This document shows positions 4,165 through 58,353 of a DNA stretch of 64,000 bases, one piece after another. The first letter of the stretch is position 1. The number at the start of each line of letters is the position of its first letter. The translations under genes were made by a program, and so were the position numbers. The notes beneath the pieces were generated by a model, which saw nothing but the letters and a program-made list of their open reading frames with translations, was not told the origin of the DNA and did no database searches. The stretch comes from Dictyostelium discoideum. Its lineage: Eukaryota. The DNA lies in the NCBI GenBank assembly GCA_000004695.1, contig CM000151.3:6784001-6848000 (forward strand), read 5' to 3'.

Positions 4165-4225
<61 letters not shown>

Positions 4226-4678: not shown

Positions 4679-4738
<60 letters not shown>

Positions 4739-4781
4739 TTAAAAAAATTTCTGATTCTTTTGATGAAAGTTGGTTGACCAT
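3820..4781 (-). CDS. hypothetical N/Q/S-rich protein with an EF-hand-like N-terminal segment; 3 exons: join(3820..4383,4466..4652,4737..4781)
   Basis: This minus-strand gene is not in the ORF track and was found by reading the reverse complement. Exon 1 (15 codons, MVNQLSSKESEIFLI) ends at a GTAAAA donor. Intron 1 is almost entirely an A55 homopolymer. Exon 2 (SNRFDEKEIKIFENIFNLIDLESKGYICKEDFDQYK...) ends at a GTAAAG donor in phase 1. Exon 3 joins in frame through an (AAT)n poly-Asn tract to the stop at 3820-3822. The frame across the perfect (AAT)n is consistent on both sides. Confidence 0.4.
4681..4735. repeat. T55 homopolymer (A55 on the minus strand), forming most of an intron
   Basis: Visible in the sequence. 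Comparable runs are at 18395-18450 (A about 56), 20585-20630 (A about 45), 22093-22130 (T about 38) and 43872-43915 (A about 44). Confidence 0.95.
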
Positions 4782-5173
4782 TTTTTCTATAATTATATTT
4801 TAAAAATAAAAAAACAAAACAGAAGTTATATTTTTAAAATAAAAAGTAGTGAAAAAAAGTATAAAAATAAAAAAAAAATTGAAAAAAAAAACTGAAAAAG
4901 ATATTTTTTTTTAAAAAAAAAACAATAACTAAATTTTCAAATAATTTTTTTTAAAAAGAAACCCAACAACGTAATTTATTAGATGATCTGAAAAAGATAT
5001 TTTTTTTTTTTTTTTTGAAAATGTTAGAAAATGAATTTTTTTTCATTTTTTTTTTTTTTCATTTTTTATTTTTTATTTTTTTTTTTTACGCAACCAAGCA
5101 CGAACAATAGAAAAAATAATCATACATATATTTTAATAAAAAATAAATATAATAAAAATAATAAATAATTATA

Positions 5174-8100: not shown

Positions 8101-8248
8101 ATATAGTCTTCAATTGGAACCATATTTGGAATACTATGCATTTGATCGTATTAAACAAAAAACCTTTGAACAATACTGTACAAAAATTCCTCACGGAAGG
8201 AGAATAATAAACAAAAAAAGTGGGGCAGAGAGGGTATTTGGTATTTAA
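5174..8248 (+). CDS. member A (most diverged) of a lineage-specific roughly 1,050-aa paralogous protein family; uncharacterized
   Basis: Uninterrupted 1024-aa ORF. It shares with copies at 27793, 31001, 50384 and 55123 the N-terminal motif MN(D/N)EYNEKLFWKVFKNKYLLNYILKNKCCHKSKKFKTI. It shares the central block IVTIKDKETIDWLSD..GGCS(I/Y)..IRDALNSKLKQ.KL.F.T.ELL.YAR.K..Q.I...DSN.E.CNIHILRTHDDIVSLINRLN.SNF. It shares YKIPTQQTCQIINLSKIKVNV.HFPNATSYL and the C-terminal NPRINLFL.YF.M.LE..KTNEIKEPFL.YKLFKLIIKTFDLESFIK.DNLLQQY. Confidence 0.8.
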   Translation: MNDEYNEKLFWKVFKNKYLLNYILKNKCCHKSKKFKTIISINSMLNHKQYQLLICKLKANENLYYGIDFESRFPKILENIGEIDDFEAFKEIHSLLFLKGYEHHGNNYSWYMKLLTRFDLGPKFEIYLDLHLKYYQQELKQYILNNMDEVFYYFDSKCINKILNCFQQQSISNKPFTLSSFERNHLLIKFLNRSNPKELMKKLKIISKIPISPTSQLKRIDENLRLSFGLYLEYLKQLKQFGLQNIPTFLLCQKLSGGEFNSEIKRYIMNDKGNLEYSSLSVYSILLYFKMYYNSYDYRSIPRSIQTQIDIIIENSKHRRCTPYQSTKQLFQLLASETKSIALYTLYLKEYDEPIETIEINEKILLYIMIKTYSINILKFLLKNHIEIESEKNKLIDDFDLYDLGKIFKNSKFDKRNIIKFFKVFSSQKSIIIKNFDQDKELYPISFNQLCMSKWKEIISNLIDKDMIVTIKDKETIDWLSDTKIGGCSYITIRDALNSKLKQLKLQFDTLELLDYARLKLNQIIQNFDSNQEICNIHILRTHDDIVSLINRLNESNFKNNEDLFKYYMVQIIQFGSRNSIKYQRLFCDNFDELRYSGTKSLDEYINTIKFVGERFIESSNCCESKPEYRKNEKPRNYKIPTQQTCQIINLSKIKVNVSHFPNATSYLLQKFIQLLDIDGVQFILDNLNGNGVGIDEYSFIDTSGLKKYICGYLYKDLMVFIQFIIDKFNQHQYNISLSNLSFSLNFLFSNLLRIKNLTIDQIKSAYQLISNYVEINCSDIHSHYYLNTLSPLIGSLSVRSFSIERFCTYETDAKVYTFGYIFKNRDNNDLHQFIDSTIMDILKKKPFKRLISFHSLLVHMLDNNNPRINLFLYYFKMQLEFIKTNEIKEPFLHYKLFKLIIKTFDLESFIKLDNLLQQYNFYFKKDEDSDEEECEYKNSKKKPKTSTSNMVEWFGVNIYKDYSDYPDIINYLYSKYSLQLEPYLEYYAFDRIKQKTFEQYCTKIPHGRRIINKKSGAERVFGI

Positions 8249-31000: not shown

Positions 31001-34000
31001 ATGAATAATGAATATAATGAATATAGTGAAAAATTATTTTGGAAAGTTTTTAAAAATATATATTTATTAAATTGTATATTTGATAATAAATGTTGTTACA
31101 AAAGTAAAAAATTTAAAACAATCACATCAATAGATTCAATGTTAAAACATAAACAATATCAAATTTTGATATGTAAATTAAAAGCAAATGAAAATTTGAA
31201 TTTTAAGAGTACATATAGAATTATTGAAAAAATTTATGAAATAAAAGATATAGAATTATTCAAAGAGATAAATTCATTATTACTCACCAATGGTTATCAA
31301 GAAGATGTTAAAATTTTATTTGATAGTGACTGGGATATAAAATCAGCAGATTTATTCGATCTTCATTTAAAATATCACCCAAAAGAATTACAAACCTATA
31401 TTACAACATCTATAGACTCAATCATCCTATATAATAATCCAAAATTGATAATAATGGTTTTAAAAATTTTAGAACAGTATATCAATGATAGTAAACCATT
31501 TACTTTAACAGAAATTGAAAGAAGTTATTTCATTGGGGAATATTCAGAAATTGGTAAACATAGAGATCAGGAAATTATTGAAGAATGGATTAAAATGATA
31601 TCGAATATTCCAATATCATCAACATCAATATTAGGTACCAGAGAATATAAAGTAATTAGAGGTATGGATCTGCGTTGGTATTCAAAATATCAAAAATTAC
31701 TACCTATGGGGCATAGTATCAAAACATCATTTGATTCAAAGGAGAATCAACGATTGGATATATTTAAAAATTTTGGGCAACATGGTGTTAATCTCTCCAC
31801 CAAAAGTAAAAGTGCAAGTTTAGTTTCAAATTTTTGCTATGGCTTTGATAAAAGTATTAAAGAGCACATAGAAGATGTCAAAGGAGAATTAGGGTGTATA
31901 TCTACATCTATCGATTCAGTTTTATTGTATTTTGAATTTTATTATTGCAACTATCATGTTAATAGTAAATCAAAAAGTATACCAACATCGATTCAAACTC
32001 AAATTGATATAATAATTCAAAATAATAAACCATATCAAACAATTAAACAATTGTTTCAACTATTGGTTAATGAAACCAAATCAATTGTTTTATATGCCCG
32101 TTATTTAAAAGAATATAATGAACTAATCGAAACCATTGAAACATGCCGTCAAATTCAATTATTGTTAATGTATTTCATGACAAAAACCTATAATACCAAT
32201 GTATTAATGTTTCTATTGAAAAAAGATTTACATATCAAATTAACTTCGAACTATTGCGAACCATATCTTGATATTTTATTCGGATGTAATCAAATCGATA
32301 AAACCAATATTATTATATTCTACAACACCTATAAATCACAAAAATCAATCATTGCGGAAGATATTGATAAAAAACCACTGGATGATTTAATATCAACAAA
32401 GGATCTTGTTGATTTTGGTAATAAACAATTGCATTCAATTTTAGGTAATGAATCATCATCGAAATGGAAAGAAATTGCATCAAATCTAATTGATAATGAT
32501 AAGATTGTTACAATTAAAGATAAAGAAACAATCGATTGGTTATCAGATATAGAAACAGGTGGTTGTAGTATTTTAAATATAAGAGATACTTTACATTCAA
32601 AATTAAAACAAATGAAACTTGATTTTAGTACATCGGAATTATTAGAATATGCAAGAATCAAATTTAAACAAGTAATTCCAATTTTAGATTCAAATAAAAA
32701 GTTGCCTAGTATCCACATTTTACGTACTCATGATGATATTGTATCATTAATCAATCGTTTAAATGAATCAAACTTTATTGATAATGAAAATTTATTTAAA
32801 TATTATATGATTCAACTAATTCAATTTGGTTCAAGAAACTCAAATAAATACCAAAGATCAATTTGTGATAACGTTGGCGAGATTGATTTAGTTTTAGAAA
32901 CCATGGTTGAACATTTTAATATTGAAGAATACTCCCAGGGAGCATACATTCAGGTTCACGACGATTTTAACAAATACAAAATACCAACTCAACAAATAAT
33001 CAATCTCTCTAAAATTAAAGTCAATGTCAATCACTTTCCAAATGCAACATCTTATTTACTTCAAACTTTTATCAAACTTTTAAATTTTGATGGTACTAAA
33101 TTTCTTCTTGATAATTCAAATGGTAAAAAATTATTATTTAATGAAAAAGCATTCAAAGATCGTTTTCACAATAGGATCTATATATCCAAATACTCATATA
33201 AAGGTTTAATAGATTTTATTCAATATTTAATTGATAAATTCTTAGAAGGTCCATTATCATTTACAAATTTATTATTGATACTGAATTTCTTATATTTAAA
33301 GTTAATAAGAGTCAATAATTTAACAATTGATCAAATTAAAACAGCATATCAATTAATATCAAACTATATTGAAATAAATCGTTCAAAACTCACATCATAC
33401 TATTATTTAAAAACATTATCACCAATTATTGCATCATGTATTACCGTTTGTGAAGATCCTACAGGTGAATATCCTACAAGTGGTTCTAAAAGAGAACGAC
33501 CATTCTTAAATTATGATATAGATACATCAGTATATACATTTGAATATATATTTTCAAATAGAACCAATGACGATTTGAACAAATTTATCGATTCAACAAT
33601 CATGGATATTGTAAAAGATAGTTATAATGTGGGAATGTTTTCTAAAATGTTAGATAATAATAATCCAAGAATTACTTTATTTTTACATTATCTTGAAATG
33701 GAATTGGAAAAAAGAAAGACAAACCAAATCAAAGAACCATTTTTAAATTATCAAATATTCAAATTAATAATTAAAACATTTGATATAGAATCATTTATTA
33801 AATTTGATAATTTATTACAACAAAATGAATTCCATATAATAAGAGAAAACCATAATGTTGTTAATGGTGAACAAGAGAATGCAAATGATTCAAGAGATGG
33901 TGAACAAAATGATATAAGTGATCATGGTGAACATGAAAATTTAACAATCAAAGAATTATTTTGTAATGGAGAAAAACCATTATTATCATCTAATATGGTT

Positions 34001-34129
34001 GAATGGTTAGGTGAAATTATAATTCACAAAGATTATTCAGATTATAAGGATATTATAAATTACTTATTCAAAAAATATGAACATCAATTGGGGACCACAC
34101 AACTTTTAATTAAAATCTGTACACATTAA
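31001..34129 (+). CDS. intact copy C of the roughly 1,050-aa paralogous family
   Basis: 1042-aa uninterrupted ORF in direct tandem with pseudogene B. An (AAT)n tract lies immediately upstream (30850-30960). Confidence 0.8.
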   Translation: MNNEYNEYSEKLFWKVFKNIYLLNCIFDNKCCYKSKKFKTITSIDSMLKHKQYQILICKLKANENLNFKSTYRIIEKIYEIKDIELFKEINSLLLTNGYQEDVKILFDSDWDIKSADLFDLHLKYHPKELQTYITTSIDSIILYNNPKLIIMVLKILEQYINDSKPFTLTEIERSYFIGEYSEIGKHRDQEIIEEWIKMISNIPISSTSILGTREYKVIRGMDLRWYSKYQKLLPMGHSIKTSFDSKENQRLDIFKNFGQHGVNLSTKSKSASLVSNFCYGFDKSIKEHIEDVKGELGCISTSIDSVLLYFEFYYCNYHVNSKSKSIPTSIQTQIDIIIQNNKPYQTIKQLFQLLVNETKSIVLYARYLKEYNELIETIETCRQIQLLLMYFMTKTYNTNVLMFLLKKDLHIKLTSNYCEPYLDILFGCNQIDKTNIIIFYNTYKSQKSIIAEDIDKKPLDDLISTKDLVDFGNKQLHSILGNESSSKWKEIASNLIDNDKIVTIKDKETIDWLSDIETGGCSILNIRDTLHSKLKQMKLDFSTSELLEYARIKFKQVIPILDSNKKLPSIHILRTHDDIVSLINRLNESNFIDNENLFKYYMIQLIQFGSRNSNKYQRSICDNVGEIDLVLETMVEHFNIEEYSQGAYIQVHDDFNKYKIPTQQIINLSKIKVNVNHFPNATSYLLQTFIKLLNFDGTKFLLDNSNGKKLLFNEKAFKDRFHNRIYISKYSYKGLIDFIQYLIDKFLEGPLSFTNLLLILNFLYLKLIRVNNLTIDQIKTAYQLISNYIEINRSKLTSYYYLKTLSPIIASCITVCEDPTGEYPTSGSKRERPFLNYDIDTSVYTFEYIFSNRTNDDLNKFIDSTIMDIVKDSYNVGMFSKMLDNNNPRITLFLHYLEMELEKRKTNQIKEPFLNYQIFKLIIKTFDIESFIKFDNLLQQNEFHIIRENHNVVNGEQENANDSRDGEQNDISDHGEHENLTIKELFCNGEKPLLSSNMVEWLGEIIIHKDYSDYKDIINYLFKKYEHQLGTTQLLIKICTH

Positions 34130-34275: not shown

Positions 34276-35040
34276 AAATATTTAATTAATTGTGAGTAAT
34301 AGTAGTGCCTAATAATTTAATGAATAATTGAATTAATTTTGGATGACATGGCCATGCTTTACCAGAAACGATATGACCATCAACAACAGCATCATCGACA
34401 GCGATATCTTGATAAATTCCACCAGCTTGTTGAACTTCTGGACGACATGCTGGGTATGCGGTACATTTAATACCTGAAACAATATTTGCAGCTGTTAAAA
34501 CTTGAGCACCATGACATACTGCTGCAATTGGTTTCTTATTTGTATTAAAATCTTTAACAATTTCAATAACTCTATCATCTAATCTTAAAAACTTTTTTTT
34601 TTTTTTTTTTTTTTTTTCATATTAGTATATTATAATATAATTTTCATTTTATTATTATTAAATGATTTGATTTAATACAAACCTCACTACAACGACCACC
34701 TGGTAAAAATAAACCATTATAAGTTGCAGTATCTACTTTATCAAAATCAAAGTTTAATTGAATTCTATGACCTTTTAATTCTGTATATGTTTGTTCACCT
34801 GTTTTTATTTTTTATTTTTTTTTAATTGGATTGCTAATAATAAAATAAATATAAAAAAGTAAAATAATAATACATACCTGGAAGGAAATCATGAATAGCA
34901 GTAACAATAAAATCACCACTCTTTTTACCTGGACTTACCAAATGAACGTTATATCCAACTAATTCTAACATTTGTTTAACTGCATAGGTTTCATAATCTT
35001 CTGTATAATCACCAGTGATAATTAAAATGTTTCTGGTCAT
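34276..35040 (-). CDS. DJ-1/PfpI family protein (class I glutamine-amidotransferase-like); 3 exons, approximately join(34276..34571,34682..34798,34879..35040)
   Basis: Exon 1 is MTRNILIITGDYTEDYETYAVKQMLELVGYNVHLVSPGKK...AIHDFLP, ending at G|GTATGT. Exon 2 is GEQTYTELKGHRIQLNFDFDKVDTATYNGLFLPGGRCSE. Exon 3 carries RVIEIVKDFNTNKKPIAAVCHGAQVLTAANIVSGIKCTAYPACRPEVQQAGG...HIVSGKAWP, with the nucleophile-elbow Cys in AAVCHG. The exact exon 2/3 junction could not be resolved between two donor/acceptor pairs. Confidence 0.7.
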
Positions 35041-35662: not shown

Positions 35663-38600
35663 TTATAAATCATTCATCATAATAAAACCTTTTTTCTCTA
35701 AATTTAGTTTTTGTAAAGATAAATTATCAGTATTAAATAACCAACTATTTAAAGATACAATTATATAAGGTAATAAAGCAATTGATGGAGCAATAATTAA
35801 AAGTAGCCAAAAGGTTGGTAAAGCATAGAGTTCAAAGATGATATGGGTTGCATCAGCTTCTACGTATCTACCGAGTACACTATACAACATTACAAATAGG
35901 AAAGTGGAGACAACACTAATGGATACGGCTAAAATGGTTTGACGAGTCCAATAACGAGTGATGAAACTAATTTGTAAATTGACAGTGACTACCAAATAAA
36001 TGTAGGCAGCAGTACCAATGGACCAAAGACCAAGAGTTTTACCACCTTCAATGGTTGAAGTATTCATTACGAAAAAGGTTACAAAGAAAATAGTTGCTGA
36101 TTGCCACATACCAATGAAAACCCACCAAATAAATTTCCAAGTTGAAAATGGTGAATTTGATTGACAAACCCTATAGAGATATGGTTTGTTCAATAGGTCA
36201 TCCTCTTTGGTGTCTTGATCGAATGTACCTAAAAATATGACAGGTAATGATGTGAACAATGCATTGTAAAGAGTGAAAAGGAAATCGAAATAAATCATTT
36301 GACCACTAAAGCCTGAAAAGAAACCAAACCAAAATTGACTAATTGAGAGTGCAATATTCTTTGAAAATGAATAAAGGATTAACTTTGTCATTCTCTTGTA
36401 ACTACGATTGCCATGCACTAAAATTAAACGACGAAGCATTGAAAAGTTTGCAATTGCAAAATCGGAAGCCAATACCGCTTGCATACCCTCCCTACCACTA
36501 ATACCAACACCAACATGAGCCTTTTGAATCATTGGTACATCGTTTGCACCATCACCAATTGACATTGTAATTGCACCATCACCAAAGAGAAAACTTCTTT
36601 CCGCTACCAAATTTACAACCTTTGCTTTTTGGGAAGGTGAACAACGACAACAAACTACACTTTCACAAGTTTTGGCGACTTGTAAAAAGAAATAACGTAA
36701 ATCAGGCTCCAATGCCAAAGCCAATGTACTACCATCGATAATGATGGCGATATGTTTTTGACTTGCATTAACTGCTGGTGCTGACATTCCATTGGATTTA
36801 TTTAATAGATTTGGTGCATCTGAGGGCTCTAATCTTAATTTACTTGCAACTTTTTCCAAAAGTTTTGAAAGATACTTTACAGAACCCCATCTACCAGACA
36901 TATCATTGAAATGATGTAATCTCTTCTCGTTGGATATTGTTAACAATCTTTTCATCAATGCTTGTTTATTAGATTCATTCAATATAATCAACTCCATTTC
37001 TTCATTGATTACAGCGGATGAAGTTGAAATACTAATTGCCGTCTCTTGTTTATCACCTGTTAACACCCAAACTTTAATACCAGCCTCTCTTAGAGCCGAT
37101 ATTGTCTCTGGTACATGATCTTGTAATCTATCTTCAATACCTGTTGAACCAATTAATAATAGATCCTTTTCTATAAGTTCACAAGCTGCATCTACTTTCT
37201 CTGCTTTCTTCACCAAAGAGATTGAAGCCTCTTGATGAATTTTATTCCATGCTATATATTCCTCATGTTCAATGGTTCTAACTGACATACATAGTGTACG
37301 TAAACCTGAACATGCAAATTCACTTAGATGTTTCTCTGTTGATTGTAATATACCAACACAATGATCTGTATTCTTTTTTGCACGTTCAAATATTACAGAA
37401 TCTGCACCCTTACAATAAATTTTAATTTGATTCTTTTGATTCTTTACAATTACTGACATTCTCTTACGATAACTATTAAATTCCAATACATTTAATAATT
37501 CAAATCTTTCCTCTCTACCATGTACTGATATTGTTATGATATTATCCTCTCTTGACTTTAAAATGAAACCATATCTTGCTGCTGTTAATGTTAATGATTC
37601 TTCATCTGGTGATGCTGCTTGATATTTTGGTATTACACTACAACCACTATTTGTACCACCATTGAAATTATGATGACTCTTTGAATTATCATGATTCATC
37701 ATTAAATCATCAATTTCTTTATTCTTTTCAATTAATACAGTATTACAAATTGCTAAACATGTTAAAAATTCTTTAATATATTCAGTTTGATCCGATAATA
37801 TTGGTATTGAAATCTCTGGTTGTACTGGAATACCTAATGGATTTAATGAAGATGATGCATCACCACCACTACCACCACTACCACCACTACCACTACCACC
37901 ACCACTTAAACCATTACTTTGTCTTAGGTAAGAACCATTTGAACTATCTGATAATTGATTTTTAATAAATAATCTTAAATCTTGTAAACTTGAATCTTCA
38001 GGACCATAAACTTGACCACCGATTGTACAACGATTGAAAACCATTTCATTACAAGTTAAAGTACCAGTTTTATCAGAGAATAAATATTGAATTTGACCCA
38101 ATTCTTCATTGATATTTGTATTTCTAGCTTGTGCTGGTGTATCGGTTGATTCATCATACATCTCCAAATCACTATCGATGAAATGTGCATTTGATACTCT
38201 AATCATTTCCATAGAGACATACATTGACAATGGAATCAATGTATTGTAGAGTATAACATAACTTACATAGATGAAATCTTCGGTTTGTTCTGGATCATAA
38301 TCGATATACCATGGCTTTGCATCTTTATCATCCTCCAAATGCCATCTATTATGACCAATGGAACATATGATACAAATGATGGTTTGTAAAAGGAAAAGTA
38401 TTAAAAGTTTATTATTTACACCACGTTCAACTGATGAACGTTTTTGACTTGCTTTTGATGCATTCTTTTCAATCTTCGTATCTACACCACTATAGGTAAC
38501 CACACCAATCACCCAATCGGTATTACGAAGTTTAGTACCTCTCAATAGTAGTTGATCAATTGAAACTGGTACATAATTCGTAGTTGGTACAACAGTTGAA

Positions 38601-40881
38601 TCACCAATATTTGAACGTTCAAAACCTTTTAAAATTGTCAATACACCATCGAATGAATAAATGTCATTATTTGGTCCTTCATAATCAACTTTACAACTGA
38701 AATCATCTAAATCCTTTGCACCCTTTATCCATTGACATTTTGAAATGGATGATTTCGCTTTTAGATTGGTCTCGCCATCAAGATTTGCAGTCTCTAAATA
38801 TGCTCTACCATCGGATCTTGAAGAGCTTAAACAAATGATATCGGCTGGTAATGATTCACCATTCTTTACATAAATTATATCACCAACTTTAATATCTTCC
38901 CAATGACAACTTTGAAATACTCCAACCTTACTATAATCATTATCAGGTACCATTGGTATATTCTTTTCAGTTTGAATGTATTGTTGTTTAATTGAACCGA
39001 AAAAATTACCTATTCTACTAATGAAACCATTGAATCCACTTTGTCGTCTTTTTAAATCTTCTTTGCTAGCAGTTGGTGAAATAATATAAAATGGTGGTCT
39101 ATAAATTGAAGTTTCTCTACCATTAATCTCTTTATCTTGTTTATGACGTTTTAAATCCTCTGCCAACTCTTTAAATGATGTTACCGCTATAACCACCAAT
39201 AATGGTGTTAGCGAAGATACTGGTCCAACTGGTGAGAATGAAAACATACAAAGTATAACAATTGCCAATGTATAAAGATTTGCTAATCTTGAGAATTGAT
39301 AAAATATTACCTTTGGTATAAATGTAAAAACATTATATTTACTTGTAATAACTTGATTAGTTTTCATAGATAATAATTGTGATTTATCTGTTGAGGTAGC
39401 AACTGAACTTGTTATTTGTTCATTATTATTATTATTATGATTATTATTTAATCCATTATTATTATTGTTATTATTAATAATGTTATTATCATTATTATTA
39501 TAATTATTATTATTATGACCAGATGAGAATGGTGATTTTGGGAATAACTTTTTTAATTTAAAATATTGTTTAATCTTTTCACCTGTTGTTAATTTCTTTG
39601 TAATTGAAGTTGTGGTTGCAATTGCTTTCTTTACATCTGAACCATAGAAAAATATACATCTACTTGCTTTTGCTTGTGAACTACTACTTGATGCTGATTC
39701 ATCTCTTTCAATATCGAAACTACCAACCAAACTTGCAGTCAATAGAATCAATGAATTATCAGATGGATCTTGTAATGATACAACCGATACAAATAACTTC
39801 AAACCTAATAATATACCACCAATTATATTCAATATACATAATAATGAAACAAATAAAACATAACTCCAAAATGCTAATAACTCCTCTGTAAATGGTCTTG
39901 AACTTTGTGTATGTGCATATGTAAACGTCATAATTAAATCTAAAATCGTTGTGCTAAAACATCCAATAACATATAATAATATTAAATATGGTTTCAATCT
40001 TTTTACACCATATGATCCAATTACTAAAAATAATGCTATTTAAATATAATAATAAAAATATAAAAAATATTAATTAATACCCCTGTTTATCTCTGTCTGT
40101 CTGTCTGTTTGTTTGTTGTTTGTTTGTTTGTTTGTTTGTTTGTTTGTTTGTTTGTTTGTTTGTTTGTTTGTTAAATATATATATATAATCTTACCTTGAA
40201 AGAAAATTAATAACATAACATAATATTTCTCTAAAACGAAAATTGGTAAAGCTCTAATTAAATTACCAACGGTTTGAACTGTAATTATATGAGTTAACCA
40301 TTGTCTACCAACTCTCAATGCAATTGCATCTCTTTTTTTTCTTTGAACTGCACTATGTGATGCTTTTAAGATTGCAAGATATTGATCTGGTACTTGTGAT
40401 TGATGTTGTTTATGAATAAATACTTTTGAATTTCTTTGATTGTCGTCATTATTATCTTCATTATTATTATTATTATTATCATCATCATCATCATTATCTT
40501 TAATTATTATTGGTGTATTACTTTTATTTAAATCTGATTCTTTATCTTGTTTTTTCTTAAATATATTTCTTTTACTCTTTTTTTTATATTTCTTTTTATT
40601 ATTACTGTTATTATTATTATTATTACTATTATTATTCTCGCTATATACATCATTACCATTATTATTATTATTACTATTTGTATTGTTATAACTATTATTA
40701 CTATTAGAATTATTATTGGTATATGGATAATTAATATGATATGGTGAATTTGGTAATGAGTTTAATGGTACAGATGAAAATAGTTGTGAACTTTCAGTTA
40801 AATGAGGATTTATATACCCATTATTATTATTATTATTATTTTGTTGTTGGTGTTGTTGATGTTGTTGTTGATATTGTTGAT

Positions 40882-40915
<34 letters not shown>

Positions 40916-41311
40916 ATATTTTATGTTTTTTGAATCGCTTTCTAAATCGACATGTTCTAAATCTGTATGTTGTGTAAGTGTTTGGTTGTGAGCATCATTA
41001 TTTATATTACCATAGATAGTAAAATAACTTTTATCACTTGCACCATTATTATTATTACTATTATTATTACCACTATTATCATTATTGCTATATATCTCTT
41101 GTTGTTGTTGTTCTTCAAAAGTATCTTCTTCGTAACCCATTCCTTGAAGTAATGGATTATTTGATCTTGCACTATTAGTGCTATCTAAAAGGTCATATGA
41201 TACACCCCCATTTAATATTGCACTATTATCTGTTGTTGACCTATACTGTTGGTGATGATTTTGTTGTTGTTGTTCATTATTATAATGGTAATCACCATTA
41301 TAATTTGACAT
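35663..41311 (-). CDS. P4-type phospholipid-translocating ATPase (flippase) with a very long N-terminal extension; join(35663..40035,40195..41311), about 1,829 aa
   Basis: The core carries the P4 signatures ITSKYNVFTFIPKVIFYQFSRLANLYTL, DKTGTLTCNEM and GDGANDVPMIQKAHVGVGISG. Its ORF has no ATG at 39997 (the TTG there is a track artefact) and continues upstream. Acceptor TTTAAATAG at 40036-40044 and donor G|GTAAGA at 40195 join it in frame to the 40195-41311 ORF (MSNYNGDYHY..., poly-Q/N/H-rich). The 159-nt intron carries a (CTGT)4(TTTG)n microsatellite. Confidence 0.85.
40083..40172. repeat. (CTGT)n-(GTTT)n tetranucleotide microsatellite in the flippase intron
   Basis: ctgtctgtctgtctgtttgtttg... 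is visible in the sequence. Confidence 0.9.
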
Positions 41312-42554: not shown

Positions 42555-42777
42555 ATGTACTCTACTCAACTTAACATTGATGAAGACCTTGGCAATGATT
42601 ATAATATTAATTTAAATAACATTGGCCAATGTGAGGTAGATAGTATTTATTATCAAAATCAAATCAAATCAAAATCATCATCATCATCATCATCACCATC
42701 TCCACACCATCTACAACTACACCATCTAAACAATTCACACATTCAACACCAACAGCAATACCACCACAATAGCCACC

Positions 42778-42809
<32 letters not shown>

Positions 42810-43869
42810 CAACAACAGCAACAGCAACAACAACAACAACAACAACAACAATACCACCAACAACAAATACATCAACAACAATATCATCAACAACAACCAC
42901 CACAACCACCATTTTCAACACCAAATAGAAGAAGATCGATTCCACCAACTACTACAACGACAACGACTACAACAACTGCAAATAACACTCCAGTAGGATT
43001 AAACTATCAATATGAATCAGTAAATAGTTTTAATAATAGAATAGAGTCATCCCCAACACTTTCGTCATCCAATCATAGTAACGTTAGTGGCTATAGCATG
43101 AATCCAAACAATTTGAATTGCACACCACTATACAGTAGTTTCAATAGTAGTGGATTTAGCACAAATACCTCTGACTATTATACACCAGTTACATCATCAA
43201 CATTTAATATAAATCCTAGTCCAACTAATAGTATTAATATACAACAACAACAACAGCAACAACAACAGCAACAATATCCATCATATAAAAATAGATTATC
43301 ATTTTCAGGTTCACTCTCTCCAACTAATCAATTTAATATTAACATTAATAATAATAATAACAATAATAACAATAATAATAATAATAATATAAATAATACC
43401 AACACCGTTTTAAAAAGATCTAGTTCTAAAGGTTCATTGGTTACTCCAACTACCACTCCAAATAATAAAGGTAATAGTATAGTTCATTCTAAAAGTACTC
43501 AATCTTTTAATTGTTACTATAATCAATCACCACCATCACCACAACAACAACAACAACAACAGCAATATTCAATATATAATCAACCACCACAATCACCACC
43601 ACAACAAAAACCACACTATGGATCATCTTCAACACCAAATCCACAATTGATATTACCAATATCATCACCACAACAACAACAGTTCCGCCATCATCATCAT
43701 CATCAACAACAACAACAACAACAACAACAGCAACAGCAACAACAACTCATCCAATCAGCACCACCTTCAACACGTTCAAAGATTAAGAAGGCACCTTCAT
43801 TTTGTGGTTATCCACCAAGATCAATTTTATTAGACTATTTTTTCATTGTAAGATGATGCATCCTATATA

Positions 43870-50383: not shown

Positions 50384-53300
50384 CTAACCAAATTTTTGAT
50401 TTAAAAGTTTTAATTTATAGTAAATTACATATGGTTCCAATTGGTGTTTATATTTATCAAATAAGTGATTTATAATATCTTGATAATCTGAATAATCTTT
50501 GTATATAATTGTACCAAACCATTCAACCATATTAGTTGATAATGGTTTGCCATATTCATCCAATTGTTTGGTTATTGAATTTACATGTTCACCATCATCA
50601 TTTGCATCCTCTTGTTCACCATTAACAACATTATGATTCTCTCTTTTTAAATGGATTTCATATTGTTGTAATAAATTATCTAATTTAATAAATGATTCTA
50701 AATCAAATGTTTTAATTATTAGCTTCAATAGTTGATAATCTAAAAATGGTTCTTTGACTTCATTTGTCTTTCTAAATTTTAATTCAATTTCGAAATAATG
50801 TAAAAATAAATTAATTCTTGGATTATTATTATATAACATTTTGGGAAATATTTCCATATTAAAATCATTTTTTGTAATTTCCATGACTGTTGAATCGATA
50901 AATTGGTTTAAATCGTTATTATTTCTCTTTGTAAATATGTTTTCGAATGTATATACTGATATATCTATATGATAATATAATAATGGTCTTTTAAAACCAG
51001 TTAAAGGATCTACACTAACGGTAATACATGATGCAATAATTGGTGATAGTGTTTTTAAATAATAGTATGAATTATGTTTTGAACTAGCTATTTTAATATA
51101 GTTTGATATTAATTGATAAGCTGTTTTGATTTGATCAATTGTTAAATTATTGACTCTAATTAACTTTAAAAATAAGTAATTCAATATCAATGATAAATTT
51201 GATAATGATAATTGACCATCTTTGAATTTATCGATTAAAAATTGAATCATTTCAATTAAATCTTTATATAAATATTTGCATGTATAGATTCTATCTTGAA
51301 AACGATCTTTAAATGCTTCTTCTAATTCTAAATCTTTACCATTTAAATTATCAAGAATAAACTGAACACCTTCAAAATTTAAAAGTTCTACAAATATATG
51401 AAATAAATAAGAAGTTACATTTGGAAAGTGATTGAAATTGACTTTAATTTTAGTGAGATTGATTATTTGGCATGTTTGTTGAGTTGGTATTTTGAATTCT
51501 TTGAATTTTTCATTTTCATGATAACTTTCTGAATGGTCCCAAACCTCTCCTTCGTCGGTGTATGAATTAGTATAAAACCTTTTAACCACAAAATTGAAAA
51601 GTTTTATTACAAAATCACCCCAATCATCATAATCTGAATAAAACTCATCAATAGAATCACAAATTAATCTTAGGTATTTAATTGAATTTCTTGAACCAAA
51701 TTGAATTATTTGAATCATATAATATTTAAATAAATCTTCACTGTTATTAAAGTTTGATTGGTTTAAACCGTTTATTAGTGATACAATATCATCATGAGTA
51801 CGTAAAATGTGAATATTACACAACTCTTTATTTGAATCTAAAATTGGAATTACTTGCTTAAATTTGATTCTTGCATATTCTAATAATTCTGATGTACTAA
51901 AATCAAGTTTCATTTGTTTTAATTTTGAATGTAAAGCATTTCTTATATTTAAAATACTACAACCACCACCTGTTTCTATATCTGATAACCAATCGATTGT
52001 TTCTTTATCTTTAATTGTAACAATCATATCATTATCAATTAGATTTGATGTAATTTCTTTCCATTTCGATGATGATTTACTACATAAAATGGAATTCAAC
52101 TGTTTATCACCTAAAGCTATATCCTCCTGCTCCTTTGTCGGTATTATATTATTTAATAGCTTTTCATCAATATTTTCTATAATGATTGATTTTTGTGATA
52201 TATAGATTTTGTTGAATTTATTAATATTGTTTTTATTAATTTGATTATCTTTGAATAAAATATTGAGAAATGATCTACTAATACTGGCTAAATCTGATTT
52301 TGTTAAAATAATTTTTATATGTTTTTTCAATAGAAACTTTAATATATTGGTGTTATAGGTTTTTGTCATGAAATAGAGTAATACTACCATCATTTCTTCG
52401 TCAGGTTCAATATTATCAATTGGTTCATTATATTCTTTTAAATAACATGCATATAAAACAATTGATTCAGTTTCATTGATTAATAGTTGAAATAGTTGTT
52501 TAATTGATTGATATAGCGTACAACGTCTATGTTTATTATTTTGAATTATTATATCAATTTGAGTTTGAATAGATGTCGGTATACTTTTTTTTGATTTACC
52601 TCCATAATAATAGTTGCAGTAATACAATTTAAAATATAATAAAACTGAATTAATTGATGTAGAGATATACTCTAATTCTCCTTTAACATCTTTTATGTGC
52701 TCATTAATACATTTATCAAATCCATAACAAAAACTTGAAACCATATCTTTATGACGAGCTGACTCTCTAATTTTTTCAAATCTTGGTAGTAATGGTTTGT
52801 GTGGTATTTTAACATTATGACCTAAATTTTCTGCTGGATAATAAAATGACGTTCGAATATTATTATAACCTAATGATAGTAATTTTTGAAATTTCAAATA
52901 CCAACGTACATTCACATTTATACCTGTTCTTGAAAATGTCTGAAGATCATATAGATCTCTAAATATTGATGTTGGTGATATTGGAATATTCAATATTATT
53001 TTAATCTTTTCTTTAATTTCTTCATGATTGTCAAGATCTTCAAAGCCATTACATGAAATACAGTCCATAATGAAATAATTTCTTTCGATTTTTGTTAAAG
53101 TGAATGGTTTATTATCATTGAGGTATTGTTCATAATAATCTAAAACTCTCATTAACAATTTTGGGTGATTAAGTCGAAAGATTGATTTTATCATTGATGG
53201 AATATAGGTTTGTAATTCTTCTGGATGATATTTTAAATGAATATCAAATAAATCTACTGATTTTATACCCCAAATCTTATCGAATAAAATTTTAACATCA

Positions 53301-53590
53301 CCTCTGTAACCTTTAAAAAGTAATAATGAATATATCTCTTTGAATACTTCTATATCTTTTATTTCATTGATTTTAGCATTTCCATATGAACTCTTAAAAT
53401 TTAAAATTTCATCTGCTTTTAATTTACATATCAAAAGTTGATATTGTTTATGTTTTAACATTGAATATATTGATGTAATAGTTTTAAATTTTTTACTTTT
53501 ATGACAACATTTATTTTTTAATATATAATTTAATAAATATTTATTTTTAAAAACTTTCCAAAATAATCTTTCATTATATTCATTATTCAT
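50384..53590 (-). CDS. intact copy D of the roughly 1,050-aa paralogous family
   Basis: 1068-aa uninterrupted ORF. It is about 92% identical to copy E outside two hypervariable patches. Confidence 0.8.
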   Translation of the reverse strand: MNNEYNERLFWKVFKNKYLLNYILKNKCCHKSKKFKTITSIYSMLKHKQYQLLICKLKADEILNFKSSYGNAKINEIKDIEVFKEIYSLLLFKGYRGDVKILFDKIWGIKSVDLFDIHLKYHPEELQTYIPSMIKSIFRLNHPKLLMRVLDYYEQYLNDNKPFTLTKIERNYFIMDCISCNGFEDLDNHEEIKEKIKIILNIPISPTSIFRDLYDLQTFSRTGINVNVRWYLKFQKLLSLGYNNIRTSFYYPAENLGHNVKIPHKPLLPRFEKIRESARHKDMVSSFCYGFDKCINEHIKDVKGELEYISTSINSVLLYFKLYYCNYYYGGKSKKSIPTSIQTQIDIIIQNNKHRRCTLYQSIKQLFQLLINETESIVLYACYLKEYNEPIDNIEPDEEMMVVLLYFMTKTYNTNILKFLLKKHIKIILTKSDLASISRSFLNILFKDNQINKNNINKFNKIYISQKSIIIENIDEKLLNNIIPTKEQEDIALGDKQLNSILCSKSSSKWKEITSNLIDNDMIVTIKDKETIDWLSDIETGGGCSILNIRNALHSKLKQMKLDFSTSELLEYARIKFKQVIPILDSNKELCNIHILRTHDDIVSLINGLNQSNFNNSEDLFKYYMIQIIQFGSRNSIKYLRLICDSIDEFYSDYDDWGDFVIKLFNFVVKRFYTNSYTDEGEVWDHSESYHENEKFKEFKIPTQQTCQIINLTKIKVNFNHFPNVTSYLFHIFVELLNFEGVQFILDNLNGKDLELEEAFKDRFQDRIYTCKYLYKDLIEMIQFLIDKFKDGQLSLSNLSLILNYLFLKLIRVNNLTIDQIKTAYQLISNYIKIASSKHNSYYYLKTLSPIIASCITVSVDPLTGFKRPLLYYHIDISVYTFENIFTKRNNNDLNQFIDSTVMEITKNDFNMEIFPKMLYNNNPRINLFLHYFEIELKFRKTNEVKEPFLDYQLLKLIIKTFDLESFIKLDNLLQQYEIHLKRENHNVVNGEQEDANDDGEHVNSITKQLDEYGKPLSTNMVEWFGTIIYKDYSDYQDIINHLFDKYKHQLEPYVIYYKLKLLNQKFG

Positions 53591-55122: not shown

Positions 55123-58100
55123 TTAACTAATAGTCTTAACCAGATTTTGATTTAAAAGTTTTAATTTATAGTAATATATATATGGTTCTAATTGGTGTTT
55201 ATATTTATTAAATAAGTGATTTATAATATCTTGATAATCTGAATAATCTTTGTATATAATTGTACCAAACCATTCAACCATATTAGTTGATAATGGTTTG
55301 CCATATTCATCCAATTGTTTGGTTATTGAATTTACATGTTCACCATCATCATTTGCATCCTCTTGTTCACCATTAACAACATTATGAATATCTCTTCTCA
55401 AATAGATTTCATATTTTTGTAATAAATTATCTAATTTAATAAATGATTCTAAATCAAATGTTTTAATTATTAGCTTCAATAGTTTATAATCTAAAAATGG
55501 TTTTTTGATTTCATTTGTTTTTCTTTTTTCTAATTCCATTTCGAAATAATGTAAAAATAAATTAATTCTTGGATTATTATTATTATTATATAACATTTTG
55601 GAAAATATTTCCATATTAAAACCATCTTTTACAATATCTATGATTGTTGAATCGATAAATTGGTTTAAATCGTTATTATTTCTATTTTTAAATATATTTT
55701 TGAATGTATACACTGATGCATCTATATTATAACCACAGAATGGTGTTCCTTTTTTAAAACCATTTGCAGGATCTTTAATAATTGTAATACATGATTCAAT
55801 AATTGGTGATAATGTTTTTAAATAATAGTATGATGTGTGTTTTGAACTATCTATTTTAATATAGTTTGATATTAATTGATGAGCTGTTTTGATTTGATCA
55901 ATTGTTAAATTATTGACTCTAATTAACTTTAAAAATAAGTAATTCAATATCAATGATAAATTTGATAATGATAATTGACCATCTTTGAATTTATCGATTA
56001 AAAATTGAATCATTTCAATTAAATCTTTATATAAATATTTGCATGTATAGATTCTATCATGAAAACCATCTTGAAATGGTTCTGTATTTAATTCTAAATG
56101 TTTACCATTTAAATTATCAAGAATAAATTGAACACCTTCAAAATTTAAAAGTTTGATAAATGTTTGAAATAAATTAGAGGTTTCATATTGAAAGAGATTA
56201 ACTTTAACTTTAATTTTAGTAAGATTGATTATTTGACATGTTTGTTGAGTTGGTATTTTGTATTTGTTGAATTCTTCATTTTGATAATAACCAAGTGAAT
56301 CCTCTGAAACATCTGCATTATAGGAGTATGAGTTTGTAAAAAACTTAATAACCTTATAATCGAAAATACTAACTACTAAACCACCCAAACCATCATAACC
56401 TGAATAAAATTCGTCAGTGGAATCACAAATTAATCTTAGATATTTAATTGAATTTCTTGAACCAAATTGAATTAGTTGAATCATATAATATTTAAATAAA
56501 TTTTCATTATCATTAAAGTTTGATTGGTTTAAACGATTGATTAATGATACAATATCATCATGAGTACGTAAAATGTGAATATTACACAACTCTTTATTTG
56601 AATCTAAAATTGGAATTACTTGCTTAAATTTGATTCTTGCATATTCTAATAATTCTGATGTACTAAAATCAAGTTTCATTTGTTTTAATTTTGAATGTAA
56701 AGCATTTCTTATATTTAAAATACTACAACCACCACCTGTTTCTATATCTGATAACCAATCGATTGTTTCTTTATCTTTAATTGTAACAATCTTATCATTA
56801 TCAATTAGATTTGATGTAATTTCTTTCCATTTCGATGATGATTTACTACATAAAATGGAATTCAACTGTTTATCACCTAAAGCTATATCCTCCTGCTCCT
56901 TTTTCGATTTTATATTATTTAATAGCCTTTCATCAATATTTTCTATAATGATTGATTTTTGTGATATGTAGATTTTGTTGAATTTATTAATATTGTTTTT
57001 ATTAATTTGATTATCTTTGAATAAAATATTGAGAAATGATCTACTAATACTGGCTAATTCTGATTTTTTTAAATTGATTTTTATATGTTTTTTCAATAGA
57101 AACTTTAATATATTGGTGTTATAGGTTTTTGTCATGAAATAGAGTAATACTATTATCATTTCTTCATCAGGTTCAATATTATCAATTGGTTCATTATATT
57201 CTTTTAAATAACATGCATATAAAACAATTGATTCAGTTTCATTGATTAATAGTTGAAATAATTGTTTAATTGATTGATATAGCGTACAACGTCTATGTTT
57301 ATTATTTTGAATTATTATATCAATTTGAGTTTGAATAGATGTTGGTATACTTTTTGATTTACCTCCATAATAATAGTTGCAATAATATAATTTAAAATAT
57401 AATAAAACTGAATTAATTGATGTAGAGATATACTCTAATTCTCCTTTAACATCTTCTATGTGCTCCTTAATACATTTATCAAATCCATAACAAAAACTTG
57501 AAACCATATCTTTATGACGAACTGACTCTCTAATTTTTTCAAATTTTGGTAGTAATGGTTTGTGTGGTATTTTAATATTGTGACCTAAATTTTCTGCTGG
57601 ATAATAAAATGACGTTCGAATATTATTAAAACCTAATGATAGTAATTTTTGAAATTTCAAATACCAACGTACATTCACATTTGTATCTGTTCTTGAAAAT
57701 ATCTCAAGATCACATAGATCTCTAAATATTGATGTTGTTGAAATTGGAATATTCAATATTATTTTAATCTTTTCTTTAATTTCTTCATGATTGTCAAGAT
57801 CTTCAAAGCCATTACATGAAATACAGTCCATAATGAAATAATTTCTTTCGATTTTTGTTAAAGTGAATGGTTTATTATCATTGAGGTATTGTTCATAATA
57901 ATCTAAAACTCTCATTAACAATTTTGGGTGATTAAGTCGAAAGATTGATTTTATCATTGATGGAATATAGGTTTGTAATTCTTCTGGATGATATTTTAAA
58001 TGAATATCAAATAAATCTACTGATTTTATGCCCCAGATAGTATCAAATAAATTTTTAACATCTCGATAACCTTTAAAAAGTAATAATGAATATATCTCTT

Positions 58101-58353
58101 TGAATACTTCTATATCTTTTATTTGATTCATGATTTTATCATTTTCATATGCACTCTTTAAGTACAAATTTTCATTTACTTTTAATTTATATATCAACAG
58201 TTGATATTGTTTATGTTTTAACATTGAACCTATTGATGTAATAGTTTTAAATTTTTTACTTTTATGACAACATTTATTTTTTAATATATTATTTAATAAA
58301 TATAAATTTTTAAAAACTTTCCAAAATAATCTTTCATTGTATTCATTATTCAT
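55123..58353 (-). CDS. intact copy E of the roughly 1,050-aa paralogous family
   Basis: 1076-aa uninterrupted ORF in direct tandem with D (1.5-kb spacer) and followed by truncated copy F. Confidence 0.8.
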   Translation of the reverse strand: MNNEYNERLFWKVFKNLYLLNNILKNKCCHKSKKFKTITSIGSMLKHKQYQLLIYKLKVNENLYLKSAYENDKIMNQIKDIEVFKEIYSLLLFKGYRDVKNLFDTIWGIKSVDLFDIHLKYHPEELQTYIPSMIKSIFRLNHPKLLMRVLDYYEQYLNDNKPFTLTKIERNYFIMDCISCNGFEDLDNHEEIKEKIKIILNIPISTTSIFRDLCDLEIFSRTDTNVNVRWYLKFQKLLSLGFNNIRTSFYYPAENLGHNIKIPHKPLLPKFEKIRESVRHKDMVSSFCYGFDKCIKEHIEDVKGELEYISTSINSVLLYFKLYYCNYYYGGKSKSIPTSIQTQIDIIIQNNKHRRCTLYQSIKQLFQLLINETESIVLYACYLKEYNEPIDNIEPDEEMIIVLLYFMTKTYNTNILKFLLKKHIKINLKKSELASISRSFLNILFKDNQINKNNINKFNKIYISQKSIIIENIDERLLNNIKSKKEQEDIALGDKQLNSILCSKSSSKWKEITSNLIDNDKIVTIKDKETIDWLSDIETGGGCSILNIRNALHSKLKQMKLDFSTSELLEYARIKFKQVIPILDSNKELCNIHILRTHDDIVSLINRLNQSNFNDNENLFKYYMIQLIQFGSRNSIKYLRLICDSTDEFYSGYDGLGGLVVSIFDYKVIKFFTNSYSYNADVSEDSLGYYQNEEFNKYKIPTQQTCQIINLTKIKVKVNLFQYETSNLFQTFIKLLNFEGVQFILDNLNGKHLELNTEPFQDGFHDRIYTCKYLYKDLIEMIQFLIDKFKDGQLSLSNLSLILNYLFLKLIRVNNLTIDQIKTAHQLISNYIKIDSSKHTSYYYLKTLSPIIESCITIIKDPANGFKKGTPFCGYNIDASVYTFKNIFKNRNNNDLNQFIDSTIIDIVKDGFNMEIFSKMLYNNNNNPRINLFLHYFEMELEKRKTNEIKKPFLDYKLLKLIIKTFDLESFIKLDNLLQKYEIYLRRDIHNVVNGEQEDANDDGEHVNSITKQLDEYGKPLSTNMVEWFGTIIYKDYSDYQDIINHLFNKYKHQLEPYIYYYKLKLLNQNLVKTIS

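Follow-up and report, generated by a model that had tools for sequence, protein, structure and literature searches.

Gene structure and reading frame

The usual description of a P4 flippase is a pump of 10 TM helices whose regulatory tails are soluble. A flippase gene in a 64,000-nt stretch of Dictyostelium discoideum DNA (the window, to which all positions refer) raises the questions of whether such a pump can carry a membrane-embedded domain ahead of its core, as an earlier note had proposed, and what that domain would do. The gene is underlain by two ORFs, at 40070..41311(-) and 35663..39997(-). Joining 41311..40195 to 40035..35663 on the minus strand gives a two-exon coding sequence of 5490 nt, which encodes 1829 aa with zero internal stops. 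The joined protein corresponds to NCBI KAM9946077.1 ('hypothetical protein ACTFIT_004369 [Dictyostelium discoideum]') with 100% identity over 100% of the length. Exon 1 (40195..41311, minus strand) starts with the ATG at 41311 and encodes aa 1-372 and contributes one base, the first, to codon 373, and exon 2 (35663..40035, minus strand) encodes aa 373-1829 and the stop codon. The intron between them (40036..40194, minus strand) is a phase 1 GT..AG intron of 159 nt, made up mainly of a (CAAA)n microsatellite; the donor GT (40194-40193) and the acceptor AG (40037-40036) claimed for it are both present in the sequence. In the alignment, most orthologs keep an MS(N/F/H) start. The 1.2 kb upstream of exon 1 is intergenic, has a GC content of 12-18% and is also the upstream region of an ORF at 42555 that is oriented divergently.

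The junction peptide FFQ|ALFLVIGSYGV is the same or nearly the same in 9 of the 10 orthologs found, with the Heterostelium model missing six residues at this point. Since these nine orthologs run ...LLIFFQA(L/V/F/I)FL..GSYG straight through the D. discoideum junction, the junction is confirmed. For one of the nine, from a related metagenome contig (L001), the whole 1687-aa protein is encoded in a single intronless genomic ORF (257..5320), so the fusion of the upstream domain to the pump is not an artefact of the splice model. At the transcript level, Trinity transcript P0019 of the protosteloid amoeba Clastostelium recurvatum codes for both parts, the upstream domain (aa 33-186) and, after it, the flippase.

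Flippase core

The canonical P4 motif had been placed about 600 residues into the protein, and ITSKYNVFTFIPKVIFYQF indeed lies at aa 602-620 (39293-39349). It falls within a Pfam PhoLip_ATPase_N match at aa 595-647 (60.6 bits, cut-off 29), and PhoLip_ATPase_C matches aa 1560-1801 (246 bits, cut-off 28.3). On the basis of Pfam, PDB sequence search and motifs, the P4A-type core was assigned to aa 595-1829 (35666..39370, minus strand). The phosphorylation-type motif DKTGT is found at aa 1027-1031 (38060-38074) and is invariant across the alignment, LDGETNLK contains the A-domain dephosphorylation motif DGET at aa 792-795, and TGDK and GDGAND are located at aa 1365-1368 and 1533-1538, respectively. 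The canonical P4 motif in TM4 is PISL, as opposed to the PEGL of cation pumps. The TM4 sequence here is IPLSMYVSME, in which PLSM (aa 974-977) is a conservative variant of PISL. Judged by these Pfam and motif checks, the core appears catalytically intact and is predicted to be a lipid flippase.

In the PDB sequence search, the best matches to the core were ATP8A1 (2.5e-218), Drs2 (5.9e-207) and ATP8B1 (3.2e-201), whereas the P4B pumps ATP9A (4.5e-104) and Neo1 (1.1e-90) scored lower. By sequence, the core is thus closer to the P4A than to the P4B (Neo1/ATP9) pumps. Long helices occupy the ten expected core TM positions in a composite AlphaFold2 (AF2) model of low confidence, and the hydropathy peaks agree with them.

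The N-terminal extension

As had been claimed, the frame upstream of the core runs uninterrupted through a low-complexity region, which occupies aa 1-298. The extension consists of three parts: a disordered low-complexity tail, a four-helix hydrophobic domain (N-TM domain) and a variable linker. The tail (40418..41311, minus strand), predicted to be disordered, shares just 18-51% identity with orthologs (dN 0.62) but carries two short motifs that are conserved in the alignment, NPLLxGxGYE (aa ~52-61) and SSQxFxSVPLxS (aa 174-185). The linker (aa 486-594; 39371..39697, minus strand), delimited by alignment and containing a poly-N insert, shares 15-42% identity (dN 0.68), and in the composite AF2 model pLDDT is <50 for residues 158-240. 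Within it, the segment N/S-R-C-I-F-F-Y-G-S-D (aa 497-506; RCIFFYGSD at 39635-39661) is conserved and forms a beta-strand in the composite model (model residues 187-191), which we take to be the counterpart of the first A-domain strand in canonical P4 pumps.

The N-TM domain (aa 299-485, the extent of the HMM match; 39698..40417, minus strand) spans the intron and is predicted to include cytosolic flanking helices. TM helices were called from hydropathy (Kyte-Doolittle, 19 residues) and AF2. Three stretches, aa 342-385, 386-411 and 423-462, have a 19-residue mean above 1.6, in agreement with the claim that the region contains stretches long enough to span a membrane. All helices are encoded on the minus strand. 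Predicted TM-A (aa 338-360; 40232..40300), WLTHIITVQTVGNLIRALPIFVL, has only moderate hydrophobicity, and its invariant positions (N350, R353, P356 and F358) include an Arg and an Asn, which counts against the proposed architecture. Predicted TM-B (aa 363-383; 40004..40225), YYVMLLIFFQ|ALFLVIGSYGV, is split by the intron and has invariant Y363, M366 and G379. Predicted TM-C (aa 388-413; 39914..39991) has an invariant Y394 and near-invariant G397 and D405, and the long predicted TM-D (aa 424-458; 39779..39883) has an invariant Y431 and near-invariant W429 and N442. They are followed by a short conserved helix E (aa 467-476; 39725..39754), SLILLTASLV, and then, in all orthologs of the alignment, by an acidic stretch.

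For the N-TM domain, AF2 predicted four long helices packed as an up-down bundle (aa 319-360, 363-385, 388-416 and 423-461; pLDDT 75, pTM 0.64), and the four helices reappear in the low-confidence composite model (pLDDT 60.8, pTM 0.50). Together with the ten core helices, the protein is predicted to have 14 TM helices. Lys and Arg residues counted in the sequence number 6 in the N-flank and 3 in the loop between B and C, whereas the A-B and C-D loops have a single one apiece. By the positive-inside rule, both ends of the bundle would be cytosolic, which is compatible with normal pump topology; the core would therefore keep its normal orientation, as an even number of helices is added. With this topology, the residues kept across all lineages (N350, R353, P356, F358, Y363, M366, D405, W429 and Y431) map to the exoplasmic half of the bundle. 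Conservation is not restricted to one face, nearly every helix position in the domain being conserved.

Conservation and distribution

The proposal would have failed had the hydrophobic region been absent from orthologs; it is present in all ten orthologous models found. As to the second refuting condition, a transcript start between 39400 and 39997, none of the genomic and protein evidence, nor the Clastostelium transcript, points to one. Across the eight dictyostelid orthologs aligned, the hydrophobic domain is 59-88% identical. Over aa 311-480, D. discoideum shares 61-90% identity with the other dictyostelids and 43% with Clastostelium, values similar to those of TM5-10 (64-87% and 45%, respectively), so that by identity it is conserved to the same level as TM5-10. 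In this clade, TM1-2 vary unusually little, with 65-86% identity even to Clastostelium. Computed against one Polysphondylium-like ortholog, dN was 0.132 for the N-TM domain, 0.137 for TM1-2, 0.129 for TM3-4 and 0.163 for TM5-10, versus 0.62-0.68 for the flanks. As measured by these codon comparisons, purifying selection on the domain equals that on core TM1-4. A profile HMM of the domain matched the dictyostelid orthologs, mostly the same sequences from which it had been built, with E = 1e-83 to 1e-94. Because of these scores and the low dN relative to the flanks, the hydrophobic stretches are not a chance product of AT-rich DNA.

Both Acytostelium paralogs retain the domain. The cores of domain-bearing flippases are mutual best matches, and other P4-ATPases (P0011-16) are without the domain, showing at the sequence level that it is confined to one flippase subfamily. 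Its known range, as seen in database sequences, is narrow, comprising Eumycetozoa and a few environmental sequences.

Search for relatives and comparison with other transporters

No Pfam family matches the N-TM domain, and its profile found no homolog among all PDB chain sequences (sole match 5wuf_A, E = 3.3). In a search of 1.84 billion representative proteins, the domain was fused to this flippase clade in every match long enough to judge, the remaining matches were short fragments only, and no clearly free-standing homolog was found; the search thus lends no positive support to the earlier suggestion of a fused partner. Nor did hhalign comparisons with the pump's own TM1-2, TM3-4, TM5-6 and TM7-10 detect an internal duplication (probabilities 0.1-10.7%). 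Four-helix membrane bundles of the tetraspanin, MS4A/CD20, sarcospan, TARP/claudin and TTYH types are among the nearest comparable systems; the domain lacks the family-specific signature and the large second extracellular loop expected of tetraspanin or MS4A-like four-TM proteins.

Canonical P4A flippases (ATP8A1, ATP8B1, Drs2p and Dnf1p) match the protein from aa 595 on (E = 1e-185 to 1e-218). They differ from it in having a soluble N-tail, whereas here about 300 aa of low complexity, the four-helix bundle and a linker of about 110 aa precede the first motif, and in having PISL rather than PLSM in TM4. Extra helices upstream of the core are known in other P-type subfamilies, namely the MA/MB helices of P1B pumps and the N-terminal membrane hairpin of P5B pumps. 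The Ma/Mb helices of P5A pumps are likewise located upstream of the core (PMC10654040). In all three, the added helices precede the core and the N-terminal A-domain segment, as they do here, but they number two or form a hairpin, belong to other subfamilies and, in the PDB profile search, showed no sequence similarity to the four helices of the N-TM domain; by sequence, the likeness is one of analogy and not of membership. According to a 2023 review, P-type ATPases as a whole have 7-12 TM helices (PMC10654040), compared with the 14 predicted here.

A lineage-specific combination of a P4A pump with extra membrane domains is also found in the P4A-ATPase-guanylate cyclase fusions (P4GC) of alveolates and stramenopiles (PMC13466520, PMC6592433), one of which (P0018) appeared in our protein search. 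However, the addition in P4GC is C-terminal, large and enzymatic (a cyclase with its own TM helices), whereas that described here is a small N-terminal one in which no catalytic domain can be recognised. No P4 pump with extra N-terminal TM helices was found described in the literature searched. The structural view of the earlier note, a predicted membrane-embedded N-domain that is unusual for a P4 pump, is supported computationally by orthology, the intronless ORF, the Clastostelium transcript, purifying selection and the AF2 bundle with its positive-inside charge pattern. Very probably, a single polypeptide combines an intact P4A-type flippase with an acquired, conserved and predicted four-helix TM bundle (aa ~338-458).

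Possible roles of the N-TM domain

Several ABC transporters (ABCC1, SUR1, ABCB6 and TAP) possess a TMD0, an extra N-terminal helical bundle that a flexible linker connects to a complete core and that serves in targeting or partner binding, not in transport. For ABCB6, the TMD0 is treated in PMC4410673. We favor, tentatively and at somewhat less than even likelihood, the reading of the bundle as a TMD0-like accessory module with a targeting or regulatory role. The analogy is functional only, since the family is unrelated and the helix count differs, and homology was neither tested nor expected. The bundle would lie outside the lipid pathway, lateral in the membrane, where it would dock on either the pump or a partner, and could set where or when the flippase is active, with the poorly conserved, acidic and predicted disordered linker joining it to the short RCIFF strand. 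This flexible tether (15-42% identity, pLDDT <50) was counted in favor of an accessory module. The conserved residues of the exoplasmic half would suit contact with a lipid headgroup or a partner, on the leaflet that supplies the flippase substrate.

A more specific proposal, which we regard as rather unlikely, is that the bundle is a membrane module of a kind not described before, which senses or presents lipid in cis: the invariant exoplasmic-leaflet cluster of Asn, Arg, Asp, Trp and Tyr would bind a specific headgroup, and the bundle would either pass this lipid on to the entry gate or activate the flippase only where the membrane has a certain composition. If so, the eumycetozoan clade would provide the first case of a P-type ATPase with 14 TM helices and an integral sensor of substrate or membrane identity.

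Also rather unlikely is a role as part of the transport machinery itself, the bundle packing on TM1-4 or TM6 to extend or gate exoplasmic lipid entry and set specificity, in the way that Ma/Mb of P5A pumps contribute to the substrate pocket. In its favor are the placement of the invariant polar and aromatic residues N350, R353, Y363, D405, W429 and Y431 in the inferred exoplasmic half, the same dN as in TM1-4, the unusual invariance of TM1-2 and the conservation of whole helices rather than one face, which could just as well reflect a bundle tightly integrated with the transport domain and so favor this reading over a loose accessory module. On the other hand, a long and variable tether, predicted to be disordered, leads to the core, no confident joint AF2 model was obtained, and canonical P4A pumps with very similar cores move lipid without such a domain.

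It is quite improbable that the bundle serves autoregulation as a membrane anchor, which would tether the N-terminal A-domain strand and restrain or time A-domain rotation. N-tails take part in the autoinhibition of ATP8B1 (PMC13642993), of which this would be a membrane-anchored version, and the domain stands directly upstream of the conserved RCIFF strand leading into the A-domain, with the acidic stretch after helix E present in all orthologs. However, about 40 residues, some 20 of them predicted disordered, separate TM-D from the strand, and 55-95 more variable ones precede the ITSKY segment; this slack makes mechanical restraint unlikely, and four helices conserved at 61-90% are more than a plain anchor would require.

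Still less credible is that the bundle stands in for the Cdc50 beta-subunit, so that the pump could fold and exit the ER without a partner, as the suggestion of a fused partner and the presence of an extra membrane-embedded element on a P4A-type core might imply. Cdc50 has two TM helices around a large glycosylated ectodomain, in contrast to the four helices and two exoplasmic loops of just ~2 and ~10 residues found here; no PDB chain is similar in sequence, although deposited P4-ATPase structures include Cdc50 chains, and among the 1.84 billion representative proteins searched there was no clearly free-standing homolog that might be a former partner.

Finally, although the intron behind the D. 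discoideum junction is a predicted one, AT-rich codons favor I, F, L and Y, and the AX4 reference ortholog is absent from the protein search matches, a small membrane-protein gene mis-spliced to a flippase or hydrophobicity arising from AT-rich DNA can be dismissed almost entirely, as the L001 ORF spans tail, domain and pump without an intron, the Clastostelium transcript has both domain and flippase, all ten orthologous models include the domain, its dN is 0.13 versus 0.62-0.68 in the flanks, and the ORFs and sequence leave no non-coding gap between domain and core.

Since it has no detectable relatives, the N-TM domain represents a new membrane-protein family to be defined. Its wider impact is uncertain given the narrow known range. 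The presence of the domain indicates that P4 pumps, as P1B and P5 pumps have done, can gain N-terminal support or accessory helices, and it offers, in a genetically tractable organism, a natural test case for the effect of an added membrane domain on flippase targeting, regulation or substrate access.

Gene model of the flippase

The minus strand carries two long ORFs (40070..41311 and 35663..39997), flanked by DNA of 12–18% GC, where the genome as a whole has about 25%. A donor (...TTTCAAG/GTAAGA, GT at 40194–40193) and an acceptor (...AAATAG/CATTA, AG at 40037–40036) can be read from the sequence on that strand, and joining 41311..40195 to 40035..35663 gives a CDS of 5490 nt (1829 codons) with no internal stop. 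The deduced protein is the same over its whole length as NCBI KAM9946077.1, 'hypothetical protein ACTFIT_004369 [Dictyostelium discoideum]', and the gene model in the earlier note is therefore that of the public annotation. An alternative acceptor (AG at 40025–40024) is in frame and would remove four residues, but was rejected since the orthologs keep them (ALFL, AVFL or AFFL). The canonical P4 motif, placed by the earlier note behind an extension of about 600 aa, is indeed at aa 602–620, and the exon 1–2 junction that it proposed appears sound, with GT and AG at the expected sites and nearly all of ten orthologous proteins continuous across the intron site.

This intron (40036..40194, minus strand), the only one in the gene, consists mostly of a (CAAA)n microsatellite. 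Several environmental fragments of the domain (P0021 to P0024) stop right after ...LLIFFQ/E, followed by V, which suggests that other lineages may have an intron at the D. discoideum site or within 1 nt of it. The intron is absent at this site from L001, a Polysphondylium-like JGI metagenome contig. The D. discoideum protein is the sole member of its 90% cluster. The ortholog of the reference strain AX4 was not among the protein-search matches; an AX4 paralog (P0011, 35% identity) was.

Three parts of the N-terminal extension

Alignment, identity and dN divide the extension into three parts of very different character, with one Polysphondylium-like ortholog serving as the dN reference for all regions. 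The low-complexity tail (aa 1–298), rich in Q, N, H and D, shares 18–51% identity with the orthologs and has a dN of 0.62. The hydrophobic domain (aa ~299–485) is 61–90% identical among dictyostelids over aa 311–480, with a dN of 0.132. The linker (aa 486–594) is acidic and variable (15–42% identity, dN 0.68), with a poly-N insert in D. discoideum and a single conserved segment, (N/S)RCIFFYGSD. The dN of the domain is at the level of TM1–2 (0.137) and TM3–4 (0.129) of the pump and below that of TM5–10 (0.163), the A-domain (0.333) and the P/N domains (0.245), and the contrast with its flanks is clear. The dN/dS ratios, 0.14 in the domain and about 0.6 in the flanks, are rough because dS is about 1 and thus near saturation.

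Only two short motifs are kept across dictyostelids in the fast-evolving N-tail, NPLLxGxGYE (aa 52–57; 41141..41158, minus strand) and SSQxFxSVPLxS (aa 174–183; 40763..40792, minus strand). A YxxPhi-like site, YL(A/S/E)(I/L/M), is located at aa 311–314, immediately before the domain. All three are candidate linear motifs for sorting or regulation.

Occurrence of the domain in orthologs and in other proteins

The ten orthologous proteins recovered represent D. purpureum, Polysphondylium violaceum, Cavenderia fasciculata, Acytostelium (two paralogs) and Heterostelium, and include two EukProt models and one JGI metagenome protein. The hydrophobic region, whose absence from orthologs had been considered in the earlier note, is present in all ten. 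Contig L001 encodes a complete ortholog of 1687 aa (tail, domain and pump) in one uninterrupted ORF (257..5320), and the fusion therefore no longer depends on splice prediction. Furthermore, the flippase comes immediately after the domain (aa 33–186) in a transcript assembled by Trinity from Clastostelium recurvatum (Eumycetozoa, Protosporangiida), which gives RNA-level support for the fusion from a relative. That the extension is an artefact of the gene model or a product of chance is very unlikely given these orthologs. A scan of metagenome DNA recovered a single contig, already known as protein P0003.

The two flippase paralogs of Acytostelium subglobosum (P0008 and P0010) lie on the same contig of 1,267,105 nt, and both have the domain. 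In a second C. recurvatum isoform (P0032, 1397 aa) the domain is partly repeated internally, HMM positions 113–188 being matched twice (aa 3–167 and aa 166–239). In the Heterostelium album model (P0009), six residues at the site of the intron are missing, as are TM1–2; these gaps are probably local annotation errors.

A profile of the domain was searched by HMMER without a word index against 1.84 billion representative proteins and gave only 14 matches, namely the dictyostelid representative, Clastostelium, P0030 (a 632-aa metagenome fragment with the domain followed by flippase sequence) and short fragments in assemblies from Logan, ENA, JGI and NCBI. None of the 14 is clearly a free-standing domain protein; in the longest standalone candidate, the environmental protein P0025 (286 aa), the domain is followed by sequence resembling intron read-through. 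The flippase cores of the domain-bearing proteins are mutual best matches, with that of P0030 sharing 37–44% identity with domain-bearing cores and at most 32.5% with others, and that of Clastostelium 44–49% and at most 35%, respectively. The other P4-ATPases in the set, including a D. discoideum paralog, do not have the domain, and their first hydrophobic segment comes after the canonical motif. On the sample available, the domain is characteristic of a single subfamily among the P4A-type pumps.

A Pfam scan of 12 domain members detected no family at E < 0.03. NKAIN (E = 0.031) and the other weak matches, each from only one of the 12 members, were rejected as chance; on rescanning the four non-dictyostelid members, only two of these weak matches, their own Orthoreo_P10 and DUF5367, were seen again. 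Among PDB sequences the best match had E = 3.3. An internal duplication of TM1–2, TM3–4, TM5–6 or TM7–10 was likewise rejected, with hhalign probabilities of 10.7% or less.

Pump core

Pfam assigned PhoLip_ATPase_N to aa 595–647 and PhoLip_ATPase_C to aa 1560–1801, in addition to the P-type core domains. The core contains the motifs DGET, PLSM (in TM4), DKTGT, TGDK and GDGAND, and the pump looks catalytically competent. Its closest relatives are the P4A pumps ATP8A1 (2.5e-218), Drs2p and ATP8B1, while ATP9A and Neo1 are much further away. The gene encodes a complete P4A-type pump with a conserved, selectively constrained bundle of four predicted TM helices. At the extreme C-terminus (aa ~1819–1829; 35666..35700, minus strand), nearly all dictyostelid orthologs have GF(I/L)x(M/L)x(D/E)(L/I/F), a motif that is missing from the Clastostelium sequence and that resembles GYAFS/GFAFS, the autoinhibitory motif in the C-tails of P4A pumps.

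Predicted fold and topology of the domain

An AlphaFold2 model of the domain, built from the 12-sequence alignment (D. discoideum numbering is that of the model +298), had a mean pLDDT of 75 (85–91 in helices) and a pTM of 0.64. Helices are predicted at aa 319–360, 363–385, 388–416 and 423–461, with a short one at aa 467–476, and the putative fold is an up-down bundle in which turns of 2, 2 and 6 residues connect the four long helices. The predicted membrane-spanning segments are TM-A (aa ~338–360), TM-B (aa 363–383), TM-C (aa 388–413) and TM-D (aa 424–458). Basic residues number 6 in the N-flank, 3 in the B–C loop and 1 each in the A–B and C–D loops, so that by the positive-inside rule both ends of the bundle are predicted to be cytosolic, as a P4 pump needs because the A-domain segment comes next.

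Nine residues (N350, R353, P356, F358, Y363, M366, G379, Y394 and Y431) are invariant in all 12 sequences, and Q346, D405, W429 and N442 are among those nearly so; under the inferred topology, most of them would lie in the bundle's exoplasmic half. A composite construct consisting of the domain, TM1–4 with the A-domain, a trimmed P-domain and TM5–10, from which the low-complexity inserts and the nucleotide-binding domain were removed, was modelled with the full-length orthologs as alignment. The four extra helices were predicted again, and long helices occupied the expected core TM positions, in a model of low confidence (pLDDT 60.8, pTM 0.50; linker pLDDT below 50). The structural part of the interpretation in the earlier note, extra membrane helices ahead of the pump, is supported.

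Possible roles of the bundle

A flexible linker tethers the bundle immediately ahead of the RCIFF segment, which AlphaFold2 predicts to be a beta-strand and which we take to be the first A-domain strand of P4 structures. We tentatively favour the reading that the bundle is an accessory module, analogous to the TMD0 domains of ABC transporters, because it is compact in the isolated prediction and the tether is long, variable and predicted to be disordered. Such a module would lie outside the lipid pathway and could serve in targeting, partner binding or regulation. It is rather unlikely, though consistent with the invariant polar and aromatic cluster on the exoplasmic side and with the conservation of the helices on all faces, that the bundle belongs to the machinery for lipid entry or selection. 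A membrane-anchored tether that autoinhibits the A-domain, in line with the autoregulatory role suggested in the earlier note, seems less probable still, and a built-in substitute for Cdc50 is very improbable, as the bundle has no ectodomain. The remaining probability belongs to roles outside these, the accessory module being the reading that we prefer.

Other genes in the window

Four paralogous single-ORF genes (5174..8248 and 31001..34129, plus strand; 50384..53590 and 55123..58353, minus strand) encode proteins of 1024–1076 aa that share 47–86% identity over their full length and have no Pfam match at E ≤ 1e-3; they form a dispersed local gene family. The plus strand also encodes an LRR protein (331..3558) and, divergent from the flippase, a poly-Q/N ORF without a Pfam match (42555..43856). 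On the minus strand are genes for a villin-like protein that combines a headpiece with five gelsolin repeats (8443..11040) and for a metallo-beta-lactamase-fold protein (11915..14515), as well as a short exon (34834..35040) which looks DJ-1/PfpI-like but, taken alone, has no Pfam match. No tRNA genes were found in the 64-kb window.

Comparison with known systems

P-type ATPases have from 7 (P1A) to 12 (P5A) TM helices, and P5A pumps possess two extra N-terminal helices (2023 review, PMC10654040); reviews of P4 regulation cover only N- and C-tails that are soluble (PMC13642993). Our literature search found nothing on P4 pumps with extra N-terminal TM helices and nothing relevant on P4-ATPases of Dictyostelium or Amoebozoa. 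The closest analogies to the domain, the additional helices at the N-terminus of P5A and P1B pumps, the TMD0 domains of ABC transporters and the flippase-guanylate cyclase fusions of alveolates, are not homologous to it. The gene models are already public; the domain itself is, as far as we found, undescribed. A eumycetozoan subfamily of P4A flippases is predicted to have 14 TM helices in all, four of them in a new membrane domain at the N-terminus. The protein is unusual in its architecture and open to experiment in Dictyostelium, yet lineage-restricted.
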